A DNA stretch of 64,000 nucleotides from a phage: the sequence record PZ452612.1. One strand, 5' to 3'. The first letter of the stretch is position 1; each line of letters starts with the position of its first letter. Below, in pieces: positions 3,412 to 28,897 of this stretch. Both the position numbers and the translations under genes were made by a program. The notes beneath the pieces were generated by a model that saw only the letters and a list, made by a program, of their open reading frames with translations, was not told the origin of the DNA and ran no database searches.

Positions 3412-4043
3412 TGTTCGCCTCGTAACATGGCACCTAGTGCACCGCCTGGATGGAACTTAAGAAAGTCATTAGAGGTAAATCCACGTTCAGACGAAAGGTT
3501 GATAGCAAACGTATCGATAAGCGCTAACAACAATGTAGTGGACATAGTCGGAGCCAGAGAATTCTCATCAACCTCTACCGCGATGCCTGTACAGAAAGAG
3601 TAATCAAAAAGGGCTTCATTTTCTTGCGGAATGTCTGGGTTACAATGCAACAGAATCTGTTTGACATTTGGACGAATCATTTTAAGATGCTTAGCCACGC
3701 CTATCATTTCTTCAGTCTTACCAGAACGACTAATATGAATCAACACATCATTAGGCGCAATGAATCCTGCATCACCGTGAGAATAATGCCCAGTGTTCAA
3801 GTACATACTCGGGATACCGAGTGAAGCAAATGTCTCAGAAGCTTTAGTTGCAATATTAGCATTCTTACCAACACCTGTAATAATTACTCGGCTTTCATAA
3901 TTACTAAGTCCAGGGCGTCGAAGAGTTTCTAGAATAGCATTATAACGAGCAGGGTTTTGACTAATTACTTTGGCCATAGCGGCCAAAGAAGAAGCTTGTT
4001 TTATGATTGCGTCAATAGCGATAGTAATAGGAGTAGTTTTCAT
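3408..4043 (-). CDS. SIS-domain sugar-phosphate isomerase (arabinose-5-phosphate isomerase / phosphoheptose isomerase-like)
   Basis: 211 aa with VIITGVGKNANIATKASETFASLGIP, a SIS phosphosugar-binding signature. Lies directly downstream of gene 43. Confidence 0.6.
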   Translation of the reverse strand: MKTTPITIAIDAIIKQASSLAAMAKVISQNPARYNAILETLRRPGLSNYESRVIITGVGKNANIATKASETFASLGIPSMYLNTGHYSHGDAGFIAPNDVLIHISRSGKTEEMIGVAKHLKMIRPNVKQILLHCNPDIPQENEALFDYSFCTGIAVEVDENSLAPTMSTTLLLALIDTFAINLSSERGFTSNDFLKFHPGGALGAMLRGEQ

Positions 4044-4083: not shown

Positions 4084-6795
4084 TCAAAAATCGAACATAT
4101 CGAACAGAGATGCTTTCTTCTCGTAATCGAGTTTCGCTGCTGATGTGAATCCTTCAAGTGGTTTAATAAATGTCTTCTCAAGGAGAACAGTGTAGTCCAT
4201 CCAATGAAGTACGTCATCTTTAATTAAATCTGTGATTTCAGTACCAGAAGGCCATGCGATACATTTATCACCGAACGGGTTTCCTTCACGTAAAGGCAGA
4301 ACATATACTTTTTCACCTTCTACAACTTGTGGAGCATCAATATTACCTTTGATAGCTCTGTTATATGTCAGAATTCCACGAATATGGAACGGACATTTAG
4401 GACCAGGGAATCCACCTACATCATATTTAGCAATGTTATTCGCAGAAGATACCGACGCGATGCTAATATAATTCAATTGACGGAATTCTTTTTCAAACTC
4501 TTTAAAATATTCTTGTAATGATTCTTCACCTTCTTGAAGCATACGACGAATACATTCTTTAAGAGCTTTCTGTACTGCTTTAGGGGTCGAAGATTTCTGA
4601 GTCTCTAGACCCATGATTTTGAGTTTAGGCTCAGCGTAACGAGTACCTTCCATATCCCACACGTTTAATGCGTAACGTTTCTTACCAGTCCAGAATCCAC
4701 CAATACCTTTAGAACCGAGCGGAGGACCAGCGATAGCTTCTCGGTCCATGAACATTAAGTGTTGTTTATTGTTCATGTATTCACACATTTCACGGAAACC
4801 TCTATCAATAGCAGGTTCCATACGTTCACGAGCGAACTTATCTAAGAAGTCTACCCAATGGTTGGTATCACGGAATTTAGATTCACCAACCTTATCGATA
4901 ATTTTATCAGCAGATACGTAAATAGAGTCTGTATCACCATAAAGAACGAAAGCTTCACCTTCTGTACCACAAACTTCGTTCAGATATTCATTAACTTTAC
5001 GTTCAATCCACTGTAAAGCCATTTGACCAAATGTTGTGATTGCAGTAGCATTACGCAAATCGTAATAACGGAACCAAACGTTGCCAAGTGCACCATAAAG
5101 TGAGTTGATAAGCAATTTACGGTTAATTTGTGCAGTCATACCTGCAACTTCAGTACGTTGAGCTCTAAACAACATTTCATTAAGAGATTTAGCAGACAAC
5201 TTTTTAATCTTTTCTTTAATCTCGTCAGTGAAGTCGAAACGATAATCAACATCTAATGGTTCGTCAACAGAAAGATTAGGATTATGCAACGCCTCTTTAA
5301 TTATTTCACCATTACGTTGAGCCGCAAGCATATAACCTTTATGTTCTTTACGTTGATTAAAGACCTTAGTGATTTCAGTTGGAACTACACCATCACGGTC
5401 TTTATAATACATCATGCCATTAGGAGAACAACTGTACACATCTGAAGGACGTTCAGCGATTGCGTTAATATAATCATGCAGTGGAGCTACTTTAAACGTT
5501 CCTGCTATTGTTTCCGGGCTAATATTCACTTGGCGAATAATACTTGGATACAGAGATGTAAGGTCGAAACTCATTACATATTTGTATCGATTTGGAATAG
5601 GTTCCTTAACAAAAGCGCCAGGATAAGGTTGAACCGGGTGAGAACGACCTTGTGGAATCACCTTGTTCTGCTCTTTAAGGCTATTAAAAATAATAGCATC
5701 CCATGTTTTAATTGGGCTAAACACAGATTGAATCTGTATCTTAGCATAATAACCCATGTCCAAACTCAAGTTGATGAACTGACGCTTAGCATCAATTTGC
5801 AATACACGATACACGTCGATAATGTTATAAGAAATATATCGTTGGTGATTGCTTTCACGAAGCTTAGAAATAGGGCCGTCATATTTCAGTTTACCAACGT
5901 TCAATTCAAATTCTGAAATGTAATCTAGAGAATACGACGGTTGATTGGTAAAAGAGAATTTTTTGTAAAGGTCGATATAATCAAGAACAGAGATACCGAA
6001 CAATGTAATGATTTCACGAGAACCATACATGTTTTCGATAACTTTAACACGAGTTTTACGATGCGGTGATAAACGTTTCGCAGTAGATTCGCCAAAAATA
6101 TTCTTGATTCGGTTATACACATATGGAATATCAAATGACTCAACGTTCCATCCAGTCAAAATGACAGGAGTTTTCTGTTGCCAGAAGTTGAGATATTCCA
6201 TCAACAATTCTTTTTCGTTATCGAACGGCATATAAATGATTTTATCGATAATTTCAGATGGAACTTCATCACCGCCTTGTTCTTGAAGCTTAGCAGCGAT
6301 TTCAATAGACCATTCTTCTACATTACCATATGGAGAATTCAATAGATCAAATACGTAGAACCTGTCGTCAATTGAGTCATAATGGGTGATAGCATCAATC
6401 GGATGTTTTGCTTGTGATGGCTCAGGGAACCCATCCGGAGATGTTACTTCGATGTCGAAGTTAGCCACACGAATTTTTGTATGGTCGTATTTGATTTCAT
6501 AGTTATAAGTGTCAGACAAATACGCCAATTTGAAATCGTCCATGCCAAGTGCTTCAAGTCCGATATCTTCCATGCGTTTAATCCATTGGGAGGCATCACG
6601 CATATTAGCGAACAACTTACGAGTACACGGCTTACCGTAGATATCGAAATATTTCGTAGCCTGACTTTCCGGACAATGAGCAAACAGTGATGGTTTATAT
6701 TCTACTTCACGAGTACGTTCACGGCCATTAGAATCGATGTAACGTTCAAAAATTGAATCACCAATCTGTTCAACCGTTAAGTAAAATTCTTTCAT
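4084..6795 (-). CDS. 43: DNA polymerase (family B), gp43
   Basis: 903 aa, MKEFYLTVEQIGDSIFERYIDSNGRERTREVEYKPSLFAHCPESQ... Contains exo motifs (FDIEV, YNIIDVYRV) and pol motifs (DTDS, KKRYA). Matches the RB69 gp43 sequence as recalled. Confidence 0.97.
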   Translation of the reverse strand: MKEFYLTVEQIGDSIFERYIDSNGRERTREVEYKPSLFAHCPESQATKYFDIYGKPCTRKLFANMRDASQWIKRMEDIGLEALGMDDFKLAYLSDTYNYEIKYDHTKIRVANFDIEVTSPDGFPEPSQAKHPIDAITHYDSIDDRFYVFDLLNSPYGNVEEWSIEIAAKLQEQGGDEVPSEIIDKIIYMPFDNEKELLMEYLNFWQQKTPVILTGWNVESFDIPYVYNRIKNIFGESTAKRLSPHRKTRVKVIENMYGSREIITLFGISVLDYIDLYKKFSFTNQPSYSLDYISEFELNVGKLKYDGPISKLRESNHQRYISYNIIDVYRVLQIDAKRQFINLSLDMGYYAKIQIQSVFSPIKTWDAIIFNSLKEQNKVIPQGRSHPVQPYPGAFVKEPIPNRYKYVMSFDLTSLYPSIIRQVNISPETIAGTFKVAPLHDYINAIAERPSDVYSCSPNGMMYYKDRDGVVPTEITKVFNQRKEHKGYMLAAQRNGEIIKEALHNPNLSVDEPLDVDYRFDFTDEIKEKIKKLSAKSLNEMLFRAQRTEVAGMTAQINRKLLINSLYGALGNVWFRYYDLRNATAITTFGQMALQWIERKVNEYLNEVCGTEGEAFVLYGDTDSIYVSADKIIDKVGESKFRDTNHWVDFLDKFARERMEPAIDRGFREMCEYMNNKQHLMFMDREAIAGPPLGSKGIGGFWTGKKRYALNVWDMEGTRYAEPKLKIMGLETQKSSTPKAVQKALKECIRRMLQEGEESLQEYFKEFEKEFRQLNYISIASVSSANNIAKYDVGGFPGPKCPFHIRGILTYNRAIKGNIDAPQVVEGEKVYVLPLREGNPFGDKCIAWPSGTEITDLIKDDVLHWMDYTVLLEKTFIKPLEGFTSAAKLDYEKKASLFDMFDF

Positions 6796-7812: not shown

Positions 7813-8775
7813 TTATTTCCAAGTCAGTTCACAGGTCAGTTGAAGAAGCATATACATAACATGTAATTCAATATTACTTGCTAGTCCATGAAACTTATTA
7901 TTTTCGCCTGCAATTTCGTAAAGCGAAATAATACTTTTACCAGGTGCAACTTGGTCATAACATTCTGAAACTAATTTATCTATGAACCATGAATAATCTG
8001 CAGCATATTTTGGAGCTAATGCACGAAGTTGTTTGATATCTTTGTTCTTCATTGCTTCGATAACATCAGAGACTGTGCCACGGTCATTAGTTACGATAGA
8101 CAGAATACCTGCATCAAGAACACCTTTAGACGAGTACTGGTCTAATTGGCCAATTGTACGACGAAAGTCTGGGAAGTTCTTTTTAACCAGAGCTGCAACA
8201 ACTTTCATATCAGCGATTTCGATATTTTCGTTCTTACAGATTTCAACCATACGATGAATCATTTTCTTCATCATCGAGATTTTATCTTCTTCAGTCGGAC
8301 GACCGAATTCTATAACTCGACAACGGCTACGTAATGGTTCAATAATTCCATCAATGTTGTTGGCAGTAATAATAATAGAACAGTTACTAGAGAATTCTTC
8401 CATAAACGTACGAAGGTGACGTTGTGATTCGGCGAGGCCACTACGGTCAAATTCATCAATAACAATAACTTTAGGCTTGCCTTCCATTGAGACTGAACGA
8501 GCGAATGCAGTTAACGGACCACGCACAAAATCAATCTTACAATCAGAACCGTTGACGAACATCATTTCGGCATTGATATCATTACATAATGCTTTTGCTA
8601 CGGTTGTTTTACCTGTACCAGGAGAAGGAGAGTGCAAAATAATATGAGGAAGTTTTCCTTTAGATACTAAAGACTTGAATGTTTCATGGTCATACGCAGG
8701 CAGAATACATTCGTCAATGGAAGAAGGACGATATTTCTGTTCTAGAATGTGTTCTTTGGAATTGATAGTAATCAT
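7813..8775 (-). CDS. 44: Clamp loader large subunit gp44 (AAA+ ATPase)
   Basis: 320 aa; Walker [11 protein letters not shown], Walker [12 protein letters not shown] motif. Confidence 0.9.
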
Positions 8776-22469: not shown

Positions 22470-22729
22470 TTAAAATATTCTCGTAGTTGGTCAAAGCCAC
22501 CGATCGAAGTTCCATCAGGAGCAAACACTTGAGGCATAGTCAATCCAACTTGTGATTCACGTCCAAGCTTAACCAGAAGCTCAGCAATTTTCTCATCATC
22601 AAAAACACCTTTTTCTGGCATAACGTTAATGAATTCGAATGGTTGTTTCTTAACAGTCAGCAATCGTTTCGCATTATCACAATAAATGCATTTATGAATA
22701 GTAGAGTCATACCCGTACACTTTAAACAT
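22466..22729 (-). CDS. nrdC: Thioredoxin/glutaredoxin NrdC
   Basis: MFKVYGYDSTIHKCIYCDNAKRLLTVKKQPFEFINVMPEKGVFDDEKIAELL... matches T4 NrdC as recalled; CIYC redox motif. Confidence 0.85.
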   Translation of the reverse strand: MFKVYGYDSTIHKCIYCDNAKRLLTVKKQPFEFINVMPEKGVFDDEKIAELLVKLGRESQVGLTMPQVFAPDGTSIGGFDQLREYFK

Positions 22730-23135
22730 TATTTTTCCTTTCATCGATTAAATATGCAACGCCAAATACAATACATGTAATAAAACCTGTGATACAGATA
22801 GAAACCAACAACACTGTACCAAAGAACCAAATCAGGTTATCTTTAGTAGTTTGTTTTATATCCATCTCACGAATTTCTATAGCTATAGTATCACCTTTAT
22901 TCAGAAGCGTATAAAACGACGGTGATACATGCCTGTCAAAAACTCGTCCTTGCTCATCTTTATAGACTGCAATAAATTCTAATTTAGAATATTTTCCTGT
23001 AGATTGACCTGAGATTAATTCCACTACCTCCACAGGAATTACTTTAGTTTCCATGTAAGTATTCTGACTGTTCCAAATGAATGGAATAATAGCAAAAACT
23101 AAAGCTGCGATAAAACAACGAAGGCTATATCTCAT
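22722..23135 (-). CDS. Membrane protein
   Basis: 137 aa with N- and C-terminal hydrophobic segments. Confidence 0.45.
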   Translation of the reverse strand: MRYSLRCFIAALVFAIIPFIWNSQNTYMETKVIPVEVVELISGQSTGKYSKLEFIAVYKDEQGRVFDRHVSPSFYTLLNKGDTIAIEIREMDIKQTTKDNLIWFFGTVLLVSICITGFITCIVFGVAYLIDERKNNV

Positions 23136-23440
23136 TATAATGTTCTCTCAAATTTGTGGAAGCATTTACGGCATTTCAATTTCAAGTTATCACTGGTCCA
23201 GTTAACCAGTTGGACTTGGATAGTTCCACATTCCGGACATGGATGTTTTGCTGCCGATTTGGCAGCATTTTCACGTCGTTCAACCATTTTCATGATTTCG
23301 TTCCATGCTGGAGGAACGAACTCTTCTTCACCGTGGATTTTATCTCGCTGAACAAATTCAATCTTTGAACTATCGTCAATAAACTTAACCAAGCGGTGAT
23401 TAGTGTTCATATCAATATCCTCTAAAAGACGTAGTTTCAT
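23135..23440 (-). CDS. Zinc-ribbon protein
   Basis: CPECG...CRKC C2C2 arrangement in a 101 aa ORF. Confidence 0.5.
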   Translation of the reverse strand: MKLRLLEDIDMNTNHRLVKFIDDSSKIEFVQRDKIHGEEEFVPPAWNEIMKMVERRENAAKSAAKHPCPECGTIQVQLVNWTSDNLKLKCRKCFHKFERTL

Positions 23441-24384
23441 TATAACACCTCAATGGCATTTCGTAAACCATCCGCTTTCGCATTCAGAGCTTTTAACGAT
23501 TTAGTCTGTTCTTTAATCTGGGCTTCGACTTCTTTCAGACGAGATTTGAGATATTCGCGTTCTTCGGCCATGATATCGACCTTTTCTGCTTTAGGTTCTT
23601 TAATAGGCTTAAACACATTAGGGTTCTTCAGTTTAATTTTAATTCGAGAACTGAATAACATTGAACCGTTATCTTCGGTTTCGTCGAACATTTCAACAAC
23701 ATCCATAGTCTGTAACATCATGCGAAGTTTATAAGACAGAGAACGAATGGTTTTGTTGCGCTTATTAATTTCTTCGGCTTTCATGGTACCGAGATTACGT
23801 GAGTAATAATAAGGAACCTGGATATCAATTGATAACGATGCGTTACCATTACCAGTTGGTTTGAATACTGCAGTAACCCAATCTTTAACATGAACTTTAT
23901 TTGTACGACCATCGCCGCCTGTGAATAATTTACGTGAATGTTTAAAAAGCATATTCACTTGGTTATTGAATTCACAAGCAAATTTATCAGCAAATTTAGT
24001 TTCAGGAATGGTGGAGAACCAATCAGCTAAATGAGTCTTTTTAACATCATTAACAATAGTGAATTCAACCAAATCGGTTTTAGATGTCACAGATTTAATA
24101 AAGCTCGGTTTCATAAAGTTTTTAATGTTATCACGAGCCACAGTAGAAGATAATAAACGAGAACGTTTGAACCATTGAAGCAACGTCCCTAATGAATGAG
24201 AATATGCATTTTGAGTATCTTTACAGATATGATTTTCTTGGCCTGTGTATGTACCAAAATCGCGAAGAATACCACTTACTACATCTCGGTGTGGAACATC
24301 AAATCCTAATGAACCAGAAGCACGTTGGGCATGAACGTTAGCGATAAGACCTGCAAAGTATTCAATGTAATGTGAACGTGTCAT
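23440..24384 (-). CDS. Hypothetical protein with C-terminal coiled coil
   Basis: 314 aa; C-terminus REYLKSRLKEVEAQIKEQTKSLKALNAKADGLRNAIEVL; preceded by the GTTTAC-N18-TATAAT module at 24413..24442. Confidence 0.5.
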   Translation of the reverse strand: MTRSHYIEYFAGLIANVHAQRASGSLGFDVPHRDVVSGILRDFGTYTGQENHICKDTQNAYSHSLGTLLQWFKRSRLLSSTVARDNIKNFMKPSFIKSVTSKTDLVEFTIVNDVKKTHLADWFSTIPETKFADKFACEFNNQVNMLFKHSRKLFTGGDGRTNKVHVKDWVTAVFKPTGNGNASLSIDIQVPYYYSRNLGTMKAEEINKRNKTIRSLSYKLRMMLQTMDVVEMFDETEDNGSMLFSSRIKIKLKNPNVFKPIKEPKAEKVDIMAEEREYLKSRLKEVEAQIKEQTKSLKALNAKADGLRNAIEVL

Positions 24385-24412
24385 AATATTTTCCTCTCGT
24401 TAAGATAGATTC

Positions 24413-24442
24413 ATTATACTCCAACCATCCTTGGTTGTAAAC
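24413..24442 (-). promoter_or_regulatory. Early-type promoter: GTTTAC -35, 18-bp spacer containing hairpin CAACCA-AGGA-TGGTTG, TATAAT -10
   Basis: Minus strand reads GTTTACAACCAAGGATGGTTGGAGTATAAT, 28 nt upstream of the ATG at 24384. Confidence 0.55.
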
Positions 24443-24446
24443 TATT

Positions 24447-25406
24447 TTATGATTTTAACGCATTCATTGCGTTAAAAAGTTTAGAATACTGCAACTGGAG
24501 ATTCGTTACAACACTTTGAGCATCACGAAGCTTAGCTTGTGCTTTGTCAAGTTCAACAGACAGTTGGTCCATAGTGGCCTTGATTTGATTGTAATGGTAA
24601 TCTTCGGCCGGAAGAAGGTCATTAGAAACATTTAGTTTTACTGCAGACAGTTTGCACACATTTGGCAAACCTTTAAACATTGATTTACCCGAAGTAGAAT
24701 AAGCACTTAGGACTTCGGCCTGTTCAATTGGGGTCCCAGTAAGCGATGCTTCAAACAATGCATTTTCCTTTTTAAGATTTTGATAATATTCGGAGTCTTT
24801 GTGCCACCATGGCGCAGGAACCTTTTTACCAATAGATACACGAGCCTGGATAGCGATATGGCCCTTATTCTTGATAAGGTCGATAATATTAAGCTCACGA
24901 GAATAAATCGCTTTAATCTGGTGGATATTATCACCTAAAACTTCCAACGCTTGGTGGAATACACGAGCGACATTATCATTCTTAGGTTTATACGTAAGAG
25001 TGAACTCATTCTCACTGATAACCATGATTTCCAACTTATCGTAAGTATATTTCAAATGTTTCATGTTAATTGCTTGAGGACGAATACGAGAAGCAATGGC
25101 CATCAGATTGTTAAGGTTATTCCGGAACTGCTTAGCGAAATATTGTCCTTCACCGCCAATACAAAAATTACGAAGTTTCTGTTTGGCCAATAAACGGCTG
25201 AACTCACCATTTTTAATGAACTCTTTAACGGGTGTGTTAGTAACGCATTCAAATTGAGTAAACTTACGAGAAGTAATCCCATAATATGAACAGATTTCCT
25301 CAATCTCTTCAGGAGTCTTTACAGGCATACGGATAGGATTAGGTCCTGGAGTATATGCGTTCGAGGTAAATTCTTTGATAAGTTCTCTACGTGTAATAAA
25401 AGCCAT
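24447..25406 (-). CDS. Hypothetical protein with C-terminal coiled coil
   Basis: 319 aa; C-terminus ...MDQLSVELDKAQAKLRDAQSVVTNLQLQYSKLFNAMNALKS; its 5' region contains the same 27-nt module. Confidence 0.5.
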   Translation of the reverse strand: MAFITRRELIKEFTSNAYTPGPNPIRMPVKTPEEIEEICSYYGITSRKFTQFECVTNTPVKEFIKNGEFSRLLAKQKLRNFCIGGEGQYFAKQFRNNLNNLMAIASRIRPQAINMKHLKYTYDKLEIMVISENEFTLTYKPKNDNVARVFHQALEVLGDNIHQIKAIYSRELNIIDLIKNKGHIAIQARVSIGKKVPAPWWHKDSEYYQNLKKENALFEASLTGTPIEQAEVLSAYSTSGKSMFKGLPNVCKLSAVKLNVSNDLLPAEDYHYNQIKATMDQLSVELDKAQAKLRDAQSVVTNLQLQYSKLFNAMNALKS

Positions 25407-25461
25407 TTTATATTCCTCATGTTGAAAAATTTATTATACTCCAACCATCCTTGGTTGTACA

Positions 25462-26457
25462 TCATTCCTTAAGAAGTTTTACTACCTGAATAAGATTAGC
25501 TCGTTCTGTTTTATTTTTACCGTTTAAGCCTGCTAATCGTGAGATTTCATCGTCAGTCTGTTGAATAGTTACATTAAGTTCGTTAATCAAAGCTTCAAAG
25601 TATTTGATTTGCTCAGCATGTTTTGATTCAAATTTCTGAACCGGAATAACGTCTTGGTTCAGTTCATCAATAAGGTCTTTAAGAGCATCTTCTTGGTTGA
25701 TATCATATTCAACTTCTTTTATTTCTTCAACGAGCTCGTCTTTATATCTAACGTCTTTTAGTCCTGGAGCTGGTCCTGAAATCTCTTCTTTAAGAGTACA
25801 AACATACCCAATACGGTATCCAACGCCGTCTCGCTTGATATCAACTTCGTCGATAAATCCACAATGTTTAAGTCCAGAGCCGATTATGTCAAAATATCCT
25901 TGACGTCGTCCTTCAAACGTTACACGAACTACTAAGACGGTTTTGCCACCGACCTTTTGAAGCTCACATTTATAAAAGTTTGTTGAACCTGAATAACATG
26001 GATGAGTTTTAAAGTTCATCTGACGATCTAGGCCCATTTGTAAACGTGCTGTTACGGCCATAAAACGTGTTTGGTTCTCGTTAAGATGAGCAACAATCCA
26101 TTTCAAAGGCATTTTACCCTGTTCACGGCCGAACAAATCAGTACGTCCTAGATTACGCAGGATGTTGTTAGAGTTAATCATCGACAGAACGTTAAGTTTA
26201 TTCAGCGCGCTGAAGATTCCATCAGCCATTGATTTTCCATAACCTTTACACGCTTTAATAAGTGCTCGCGGCAGATTAGTATAGATTTCAGACGGCATAT
26301 GAAAATCAAATTTACTAGTCAGTAATTGATGAACTTGGATAGCAATTTGCTCATAATTAAGTGCTCTGCGATCGTTATGGTCTTTAAACCATACTTTAAT
26401 CTGTGAAGCACATAAACCGTTAATTTCATGTTTTACCGCATCAGATGTAATGCTCAT
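25462..26457 (-). CDS. Hypothetical protein with C-terminal coiled coil
   Basis: 331 aa; acidic linker then coiled coil. Confidence 0.5.
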   Translation of the reverse strand: MSITSDAVKHEINGLCASQIKVWFKDHNDRRALNYEQIAIQVHQLLTSKFDFHMPSEIYTNLPRALIKACKGYGKSMADGIFSALNKLNVLSMINSNNILRNLGRTDLFGREQGKMPLKWIVAHLNENQTRFMAVTARLQMGLDRQMNFKTHPCYSGSTNFYKCELQKVGGKTVLVVRVTFEGRRQGYFDIIGSGLKHCGFIDEVDIKRDGVGYRIGYVCTLKEEISGPAPGLKDVRYKDELVEEIKEVEYDINQEDALKDLIDELNQDVIPVQKFESKHAEQIKYFEALINELNVTIQQTDDEISRLAGLNGKNKTERANLIQVVKLLKE

Positions 26458-26519
26458 AACTATTTCCTCGGATTGAATTGGAACTCAAAACCATTATAAC
26501 CCGTCCTTGGGTAAAGCGT

Positions 26520-27047
26520 TTATGCGTGAACCGACTTTAAACGTTCTTCAAATTTCCGAAGAGTACTAATACGTTCTGCTTTCTGTTTTGTATAGTTTGC
26601 AATACGTTCTGAAGTGAGAGCGTATCGTTCGTTTACTGTTTCTTTCATGAAGTCAGGGATTTCACGAGAAGCTTTAATTTCATCAAACTTATCGAGTACT
26701 GCCTGGTCTTCAGCAATTAAATTTTCGTACATCTCGATATCTTTCTTGATGAAGTCGATATCTTCCTGGGTTACTTTGGATAAACGAGATGCTTTATCCT
26801 TTTTGTACTGCTCGTTAGTTTCACGAGACCAGAATAATGTACGTTTTTTGTTAGTGTTTTTGTAGACTTCCACAATTCCAACTGAATCGATGATAACAAT
26901 CCAATTCCAGCGAGATTTGAAAATCTGACCTCCGTCCACGGTAATCTCGTTACCATAAGCAATGTCATTAAAGAACTTACTTTGTGCTTCGGATTTAAAT
27001 TTACCGTCGTTATAATTTACCAGGTTGAAAATATCTTTAGCGTTCAT
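26520..27047 (-). CDS. Hypothetical protein
   Basis: 175 aa ORF. Confidence 0.45.
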   Translation of the reverse strand: MNAKDIFNLVNYNDGKFKSEAQSKFFNDIAYGNEITVDGGQIFKSRWNWIVIIDSVGIVEVYKNTNKKRTLFWSRETNEQYKKDKASRLSKVTQEDIDFIKKDIEMYENLIAEDQAVLDKFDEIKASREIPDFMKETVNERYALTSERIANYTKQKAERISTLRKFEERLKSVHA

Positions 27048-28630: not shown

Positions 28631-28897
28631 TTACTTATCACACTTAGCAACATAATTAGGCATATCACAGAATACAGAGCGAGTAACTACTCGACCCTTT
28701 GACCATGCTTCAGTTGCTTGTCCGGCCGTGCTATTAATATAGCTTGATTTAATGTTCTCAATACCCTGAGAATGTGATGCATTTACCGAACCGTTAGAAG
28801 GCCCAGAAGACTGGTTACCACCAGCTCCTGCGCCCGTGGTAGCACCAACAGAGAATGCCATCATTACTGCGAATAAACCAATTACTAATTTTTTCAT
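28631..28897 (-). CDS. Small secreted protein (signal peptide, two Cys)
   Basis: MKKLVIGLFAVMMAFSVGATTGAGAGG... N-terminal signal-like segment; 88 aa. Confidence 0.45.
   Translation of the reverse strand: MKKLVIGLFAVMMAFSVGATTGAGAGGNQSSGPSNGSVNASHSQGIENIKSSYINSTAGQATEAWSKGRVVTRSVFCDMPNYVAKCDK

Follow-up and report, generated by a model that had tools for sequence, protein, structure and literature searches.

Three adjacent genes in the phage sequence record PZ452612.1, analyzed here as one stretch of 64,000 nucleotides (the window), raise the question of whether they form a diversified array of paralogues under common control. The original prediction had proposed this from genes of 314, 319, and 331 aa lying side by side, from a heptad-like coiled coil that ends each protein behind a dissimilar N-terminal body, and from an identical 27-nt sequence preceding two of the genes. 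The three open reading frames (ORFs) were confirmed on the minus strand, as were the two copies of the repeat (Table 1). The best overall explanation, which we consider rather probable, is that the locus is the nrdC.3-nrdC.6 early array of a Mosigvirus, with hairpin-bearing promoters, a repeat left behind as a duplication scar, and a putative function against host defenses. The genes belong to known, mostly uncharacterized T-even families and stand behind a known kind of promoter cassette; the finding is real and largely ordinary.

Identity and turnover of the array

Gene order was compared with that of T4 (gene 49, nrdC, and the nrdC.x block), and gene-by-gene matches extended from nrdC through nrdC.11. 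At the level of sequence, these comparisons showed that the locus corresponds to the T4 nrdC.3-nrdC.6 block in its Mosigvirus version, i.e. a set of accessory early genes in the hyperplastic region that separates nrdC from nrdC.8. Over this stretch, the sequence is 100% identical to Escherichia coli O157 typing phages 3, 6, and 13 (Mosigvirus), and the GenBank record KP869101 contains the same three ORFs, annotated as hypothetical proteins.

The 331-aa protein matched the NrdC.6 family phrog_2257 over its full length in hidden Markov model (HMM) comparison. Like T4 NrdC.6 it is encoded beside nrdC.8 or nrdC.7, but it has a longer linker and is only 37% identical over 139 aa (33-37% overall); PF26899 is present on its homologues. 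The 331-aa gene has its own promoter, whereas T4-type phages have none at this place and nrdC.7 precedes nrdC.6 there. The 319-aa protein is a member of DUF7235, which it matched with 413.7 bits (cut-off 30), residues 15-318 aligning to profile positions 1-307; T4 NrdC.5 itself scored 420.6 bits. The two share array position, similar size, and a C-terminal coiled coil ending in ..NALNAL/..NAMNALKS. They differ in that the 319-aa gene has a promoter of its own, whereas T4 nrdC.5 is promoterless and starts 8 nt past nrdC.6. The 314-aa protein matched phrog_1435 over its full length, as did both T4 NrdC.3 and T4 NrdC.4. It is close to NrdC.3 (58% identity, full length) and distantly similar to NrdC.4 (E 6e-5), and PF26897 is present on its homologues; unlike T4, the window phage has no NrdC.4-type gene. 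All three families (NrdC.3/4, NrdC.5, and NrdC.6) are limited to T-even-type phages. A HMMER search of 1.8 billion proteins with the NrdC.6-type profile yielded only six clusters and a scan over viral contigs six loci, so that no further diversity was available for deepening the profiles.

Pfam and NCBIfam scans of the three proteins revealed no thioredoxin or glutaredoxin family and lent no support to a thioredoxin fold. Many phage records nevertheless label homologues of NrdC.3 to NrdC.11 as "thioredoxin," a label that appears to have spread from the nrdC.x gene names. Scans of the array proteins with NCBIfam and PADLOC gave nothing significant, and comparison with PDB sequences returned coiled-coil noise only. 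Pfam, PDB, NCBIfam, and PADLOC offered no annotated domain or solved structure of help for the function of the three proteins.

The array genes have diverged from T4 far more than their neighbors: identity was 58% (314-aa), 25% (319-aa), and 37% (331-aa) as compared with 78-90% for the flanking nrdC, nrdC.8, nrdC.10, and nrdC.11. Synteny comparison across T4-like phages uncovered three or four array genes in combinations that differ by genus. T4, RB6, and JEP6 carry four (nrdC.6, nrdC.5, nrdC.4, and nrdC.3), the window phage and the Mosigvirus moha carry the nrdC.6, nrdC.5, and nrdC.3 types, and PSD2002 (Dhakavirus) and ECML-359 (Gaprivervirus) carry the nrdC.6, nrdC.5, and nrdC.4 types. In ACG-C40, a deletion from within nrdC.5 to within nrdC.3 (5305-5713 of its locus) has removed nrdC.4, leaving a 71-aa 5' piece of nrdC.5 adjoining a 3' piece of nrdC.3. 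Pinarejo has retained only the last 45 codons of nrdC.6 (5501-5635 of its locus). These deletions imply that the array is dispensable and deletion-prone.

A smaller lesion was seen in T4 itself. The 3' end of nrdC.6 in NC_000866 (about 8067-8110 of locus L001) contains a 1-nt deletion, GAGCTG-ATATTT versus GAGCTGAATATTT in RB6. The resulting frameshift removes the last ~37 residues, i.e. the coiled-coil tail, which is readable in another frame; other T-even phages encode a full 295-aa NrdC.6.

Relationship among the three proteins

BLASTP produced no matches among the three window proteins. At this level, the N-terminal bodies are as dissimilar as the original prediction had stated, but profile comparison changed the picture for two of the families. 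Family alignments enriched with sequences from four genera were compared pairwise with hhalign. NrdC.3 was linked to NrdC.4 with a probability of 97.4% (E 1.6e-11), NrdC.4 to NrdC.5 with 53% (E 1.4e-4), and the combined NrdC.3+4 profile to NrdC.5 with 69.5% (E 4.3e-5). The last value fell to 55% (E 1.2e-4) when the last 65 residues were removed. Reversed-profile controls reached at most 0.6% (E 0.1-0.55), and NrdC.6 against any other family gave about 1% (E 0.04-0.16). Over all comparisons of NrdC.3/4 with NrdC.5, probabilities were 53-70% and E values 4e-5 to 3e-4 across 120-160 co-linear columns, as compared with 0.14-0.36 in the reversed controls, and the alignments always held two helices, FK.S.LLS..A...L.NF and F..F..N...L..A(S)R(L/I). 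With the NrdC.5 HMM, ten NrdC.3 members scored higher than any of 1075 shuffled decoys; with the NrdC.6 HMM, no match rose above decoys. An N-terminal motif, M(K)TR..(Y)I..F, is common to NrdC.3, NrdC.4, and NrdC.5.

Judging from these profiles, NrdC.3 and NrdC.4 are clearly paralogues, within the same array in T4, the 314-aa (NrdC.3/4-type) and 319-aa (NrdC.5-type) proteins are probably old, remote paralogues, and the 331-aa (NrdC.6-type) protein may be related to the others. A similar C-terminal pattern, L..A(hydrophobic)..LK, recurs in all four families. HMMs of the C-terminal 30 aa gave no cross-match between families, so that the coiled-coil tail may be convergent, and demonstrable homology of the tails was dropped for this reason.

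The alternative is that the three genes are unrelated, having arrived at their size, position, and coiled-coil tail by convergence or domain accretion, with the shared module as a copied strong promoter. This we regard as unlikely. The blank BLASTP result, the isolation of the NrdC.6 family, the lack of cross-matches between the C-terminal HMMs, and the occurrence of the module before unrelated genes (see below) would all agree with it. It is opposed by the link between NrdC.3/4 and NrdC.5 at E ~1e-4, which persisted without the coiled coil and in comparison with which the reversed controls were far weaker. The ten NrdC.3 members above all decoys, the common N-terminal motif, and the clear paralogy of NrdC.3 and NrdC.4 in one T4 array likewise speak against it. 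The proposed array of paralogues is supported only in part: paralogy is probable for the 314-aa and 319-aa families, and a significant link was not obtained for the 331-aa protein.

The C-terminal helices were judged by a crude heptad score and by AlphaFold models with DSSP assignment. Each protein has the heptad-patterned C terminus that had been proposed, extending over at least four heptads in a predicted helix; in the 331-aa protein (score 0.65, residues 281-309) the helix is interrupted. The model of the 319-aa protein has one long helix, residues 266-318, as its best-scored part, whereas the C-terminal helix of the 331-aa model is broken into residues 256-267, 273-294, 302-312, and 316-330. 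Pfam coiled-coil families gave weak matches only with the three proteins. The low-confidence model of the 331-aa protein begins with a helical region at the N terminus, followed by a beta-beta-alpha-beta-beta segment, then a linker, and finally the broken C-terminal helix. The AlphaFold2 inputs were shallow alignments of 5 rows (331-aa) and 17 rows (319-aa), and the models are unusable for fold comparison because their confidence (pLDDT) was 48 and 42, respectively. The order of secondary structure is alike in both (N-terminal helices, strands with an intervening helix, linker, C-terminal helix), which is only a hint of relatedness. Taken together, each protein would consist of a fast-diverging alpha/beta body and an amphipathic C-terminal helix; this predicted helix of ~45-55 aa probably drives oligomerization.

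Promoters, spacer hairpin, and origin of the repeat

The repeat TACAACCAAGGATGGTTGGAGTATAAT occurs exactly twice in the 64 kb, on the minus strand at 24413-24439 and 25433-25459. No further copy was found in the window at up to three mismatches, 100 shuffles gave 0 matches, and the identity between the two copies ends sharply at both edges of the 27 nt. As predicted from its letters, the repeat forms the central part of an early sigma-70 promoter of the T4 type: a GTTTAC-like -35 element, a spacer of ~17 bp, and TATAAT are present as predicted sequence features. The spacer of the 314-aa promoter measures 18 nt if GTTTAC is taken as the -35 element and 17 nt if TTTACA is. In a promoter scan, TTTACA-17-TATAAT gave 11 of 12 matches, and the corresponding TGTACA-17-TATAAT of the 319-aa gene gave 10 of 12. 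The former promoter includes the first repeat copy and a hairpin at 24437-24422, the latter the second copy and the same hairpin at 25457-25442.

Beyond the two genes noted originally, a variant of the module lies in front of the 331-aa gene; it is composed of GCTTTA (26517-26512), the hairpin ACCC-AAGGAC-GGGT (26512-26499), and the -10 box TATAAT (26498-26493). The layout is kept in moha, PSD2002, and ECML-359, whose stem is TACCA/TGGTA instead. In T4 middle promoters, the MotA box TGCTTtA lies ~12 bp upstream of the -10 box. The distance from cGCTTTA to TATAAT is 13 nt in the window and 12 nt in PSD2002 and ECML-359; on an unscored comparison with this consensus, GCTTTA of the 331-aa gene resembles a MotA box, which would make this a possible early/middle promoter variant. 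As shown by these comparisons, each array gene has its own predicted promoter of one hairpin-bearing type. A further site that fits an early promoter well (GTTTACG, 17 nt, TATAAT, upstream TG) was noted at 23439-23468 on the minus strand; it lies within the last codons of the 314-aa gene, before an overlapping 101-aa gene of the nrdC.2 type, and lacks a hairpin in its spacer.

The spacer hairpin CAACCA-AGGA-TGGTTG has a folding energy of -6.9 kcal/mol (z -4.0). Hairpins with the same loop and varied complementary stems were found at nrdC.3-, nrdC.4-, and nrdC.6-type promoters across Tequatrovirus, Mosigvirus, Dhakavirus, and Gaprivervirus, the stems being CAACCA/TGGTTG, CATCCA/TGGATG, CTTCCA/TGGAGG, CCACA/TGTGG, AGCCA/TGGCT, and TACCA/TGGTA. 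AGGA-loop hairpins of this kind occur in T4 at the nrdC.3 and nrdC.4 promoters, where the stems differ. Covariation was computed on nine distinct sequences: 92.6% of the cells were paired versus 62.8% in shuffles, four of the six pairs had compensatory changes on both sides, and the covariation score was 0.736 versus 0.164 in shuffles, a value as high being reached in 0 of 500. A slid-partner control gave at most 43% pairing. The compensatory changes maintain the pairs, as in a conserved nucleic-acid hairpin.

Eight GTTTAC..TAYWAT sites are present in the window, and a spacer stem of at least 5 bp was seen only at the array promoter that this pattern caught; the TGTACA copy of the 319-aa gene and the GCTTTA variant of the 331-aa gene were not scored because neither fits the pattern. 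The motif CAAGGAYG accompanies all three array promoters; two further occurrences elsewhere were attributed to chance. Rfam contained no match for the hairpin. Because of the covariation and the spacer scan, we conclude that the predicted hairpin is real and not general to early promoters. An intrinsic terminator was rejected because the hairpin has no U-tract.

The 319-aa gene is bracketed by the two repeat copies, which lie in direct orientation at a distance of 1020 bp. In moha, the repeat comprises 62 nt, 60 of them identical, and begins with the last codons (..MNALKS) and stop of an NrdC.5-type ORF. This fossil 3' end follows a small membrane-protein ORF and precedes the intact nrdC.5-type gene. 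The window phage has neither the small ORF nor the fossil, and the 331-aa stop codon abuts the repeat. On the left, the 27-nt identity reaches as far as this junction, which is a deletion junction relative to moha; on the right, it stops where the -10 box ends. By this comparison the exact identity is the scar of a duplication or cassette exchange followed by deletion, and it is thus no evidence for a dedicated regulator. The small ORF of moha encodes a predicted 66-aa membrane protein between the nrdC.6 and nrdC.5 types (3699-3940 of its locus); the window has no such ORF at the corresponding place, about 25460. A 71-aa ORF occupies the same place in PSD2002 and, judged from the sequence upstream of nrdC.5, in ECML-359.

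In 147 Mosigvirus records, the same cassette, taken as 35 nt, was present in one to three copies per genome. The extra site in Mosigviruses is located ~42 kb away, where it precedes unrelated genes between dexA and the motB region. Common control, as originally envisaged, holds insofar as each array gene has a promoter of one hairpin type, but the same cassette also serves genes outside the array. In some Mosigviruses, the dexA/motB region contains two tandem ~164-aa paralogous genes (loci L034, 1323-2437; L036; L093, 2501-3056), each following a hairpin promoter cassette (CAACCA/TGGTTG and CATCCA/TGGATG stems), i.e. a second small cassette array. A pattern scan of viral contigs returned true T-even sites mixed with chance matches, e.g. 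upstream of the L030 clamp-loader gene.

The PeSL cassettes of T4-like phages consist of an early promoter and a stem-loop, are repeated in hyperplastic regions, and mediate insertions, deletions, and mini-circles (PMC2839356, PMC4122927). The array module has in common with them (Arbiol 2010; Comeau 2014) an intergenic sigma-70-like early promoter (TTTACW, N17, TAYWAT in the PST/T4 pair) with a stem-loop, and repetition in a hyperplastic region beside insertions, deletions, and exchanges, where it flanks genes as potentially recombining direct repeats. It differs in its conserved loop sequence and in the place of the stem-loop, which is inside the spacer and has no T-run, whereas the published one lies just upstream of the promoter and acts as a terminator. 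In sequence layout, the module resembles a PeSL-like promoter cassette that is reused elsewhere in the genome.

The hairpin most likely acts on read-through RNA as an attenuator or 3'-end stabilizer, for which it would be placed just past the upstream stop codon; it would also be a homology patch for recombination. In read-through RNA at 24413-24422 and 25433-25442 (minus strand), GGAG plus the -10 box reads GGAGUAUAAUG/A. The sequence GGAGUAUAAUG resembles the published RegB/S1 cleavage consensus GGAGRAYARAA, and the hairpin loop includes GGAU/GGAC. RegB cleavage at the modules remains speculation, because most intergenic GGAU sites of T4 were reported to be uncut by RegB (PMC1702504).

In a second alternative, a dedicated regulator of phage or host origin would bind the module, with the array and the dexA/motB-region genes as a small regulon under true common control. 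Two observations would suit such a site: in all four genera the loop with its closing pair reads C-AAGGA-(T/C)-G whatever the sequence of the stem, and the motif is confined to few promoters. Covarying arms, however, point to a folded single strand rather than to the conserved half-sites of a dimeric DNA binder, no candidate regulator was identified, no Rfam family matched, and in the published RegB work most intergenic GGAU sites were uncut. We consider a dedicated regulator improbable.

Table 1. Window positions of the array genes, their predicted promoter modules, and the predicted C-terminal helices
Feature	Position	Strand	Details
331-aa gene	25462..26457	-	homologue of T4 nrdC.6; phrog_2257, E 4.4e-127, residues 1-331
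319-aa gene	24447..25406	-	Pfam DUF7235 (T4 NrdC.5 family), phrog_2351
314-aa gene	23440..24384	-	homologue of T4 nrdC.3; phrog_1435, E 3.9e-101, residues 1-314
Variant module, 331-aa gene	26491..26520	-	ACCCAAGGACGGGT then TATAAT
Early-type promoter, 319-aa gene	25433..25461	-	-35 TGTACA 25461-25456, 17 nt, -10 TATAAT 25438-25433
Early-type promoter, 314-aa gene	24413..24442	-	-35 GTTTAC 24442-24437, -10 TATAAT 24418-24413
C-terminal helical region, 331-aa protein	25465..25692	-	residues 256-331, interrupted at GLNGK
C-terminal heptad-patterned helix, 319-aa protein	24450..24608	-	residues 267-319, heptad score 0.90
C-terminal heptad-patterned helix, 314-aa protein	23443..23592	-	residues 265-314, heptad score 0.88

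The surroundings of the array differ from T4 in further respects. A NrdC.7 homologue (41-44% identity), a predicted membrane protein, is encoded at 22722-23135 (minus strand) between nrdC and the nrdC.2-type gene, whereas T4 nrdC.7 adjoins nrdC.6. The window has no homologue of nrdC.1, the published Septu inhibitor, and none of nrdC.4. An 88-aa ORF with a signal-peptide-like N terminus, MKKLVIGLFAVMMAFSVGA..., lies at 28631-28897 (minus strand) between the nrdC.10 and nrdC.11 homologues, where T4 has no annotated gene.

A putative function against host defenses

T4 nrdC.5 has been described as an uncharacterized, dispensable early gene whose product counters the SIR2 defense Dsr1: a T4 deletion mutant infected a Dsr1-carrying host again when NrdC.5 was expressed (PMC9391042). 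It is the sole tested member of the array families. With Gp49.2, which inhibits OLD (PMC13096335), and NrdC.1, which inhibits Septu (bioRxiv 10.1101/2025.11.20.689424), three neighboring inhibitors have recently been shown in this T-even stretch. Fast divergence, gain and loss of genes, the action of NrdC.5 on Dsr1, and the nearby anti-defense genes are the reasons for the reading that the array most likely encodes early anti-defense proteins composed of variable target-binding bodies and an oligomerizing tail. The array would then supply early inhibitors of host anti-phage defenses, each body being aimed at a different target.

A role in another early process (for which the nrd name would suggest nucleotide metabolism or replication complexes) or in host physiology is a doubtful alternative. 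A tested member exists in just one of the three families, scaffold roles would suit coiled-coil tails, and many records bear the thioredoxin label; on the other hand, the Pfam and NCBIfam scans found no thioredoxin or enzymatic domain, the genes are dispensable, variably present, and far faster in divergence than their neighbors, and the sole tested member counters Dsr1 amid other anti-defense genes.

Several observations weigh against the overall explanation given at the outset. Neither hhalign nor the HMM comparison with decoys linked the NrdC.6 family significantly to the other families, and the C-terminal HMMs do not cross-match. The AlphaFold2 models are unreliable, and Foldseek searches of BFVD with them returned same-family members and weak matches (TM 0.2-0.35) to ~300-aa proteins of other T4-like phages, which were not relied upon. 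The 319-aa protein is just 25% identical to the tested T4 NrdC.5 (E 3.6e-10). The hairpin is weak (-4.9 to -6.9 kcal/mol), was not called terminator-like, and has only two G-U pairs in support of an RNA-level role; finally, its place between -35 and -10 departs from the published PeSL arrangement.

A more far-reaching version of the anti-defense reading is tentative. NrdC.3 to NrdC.6 might constitute one T-even-restricted superfamily with coiled-coil tails, each body directed against another defense, Dsr1 being the first. The hairpin cassette might be the swap joint for alleles and genes, and the AGGA-loop hairpin an undescribed functional RNA or single-stranded DNA element.

Three points are modestly new: profile comparison links the NrdC.3/4 family with NrdC.5, a covarying hairpin with an AGGA loop lies within the promoter spacer, and a duplication scar accounts for the exact repeat. 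A covarying hairpin at this place could reveal how T-even phages insulate or exchange early-gene cassettes. If it is true that other array members inhibit defenses, they are ready candidates for anti-defense screens, and they could help to explain host-range differences among therapeutic T4-like phages.

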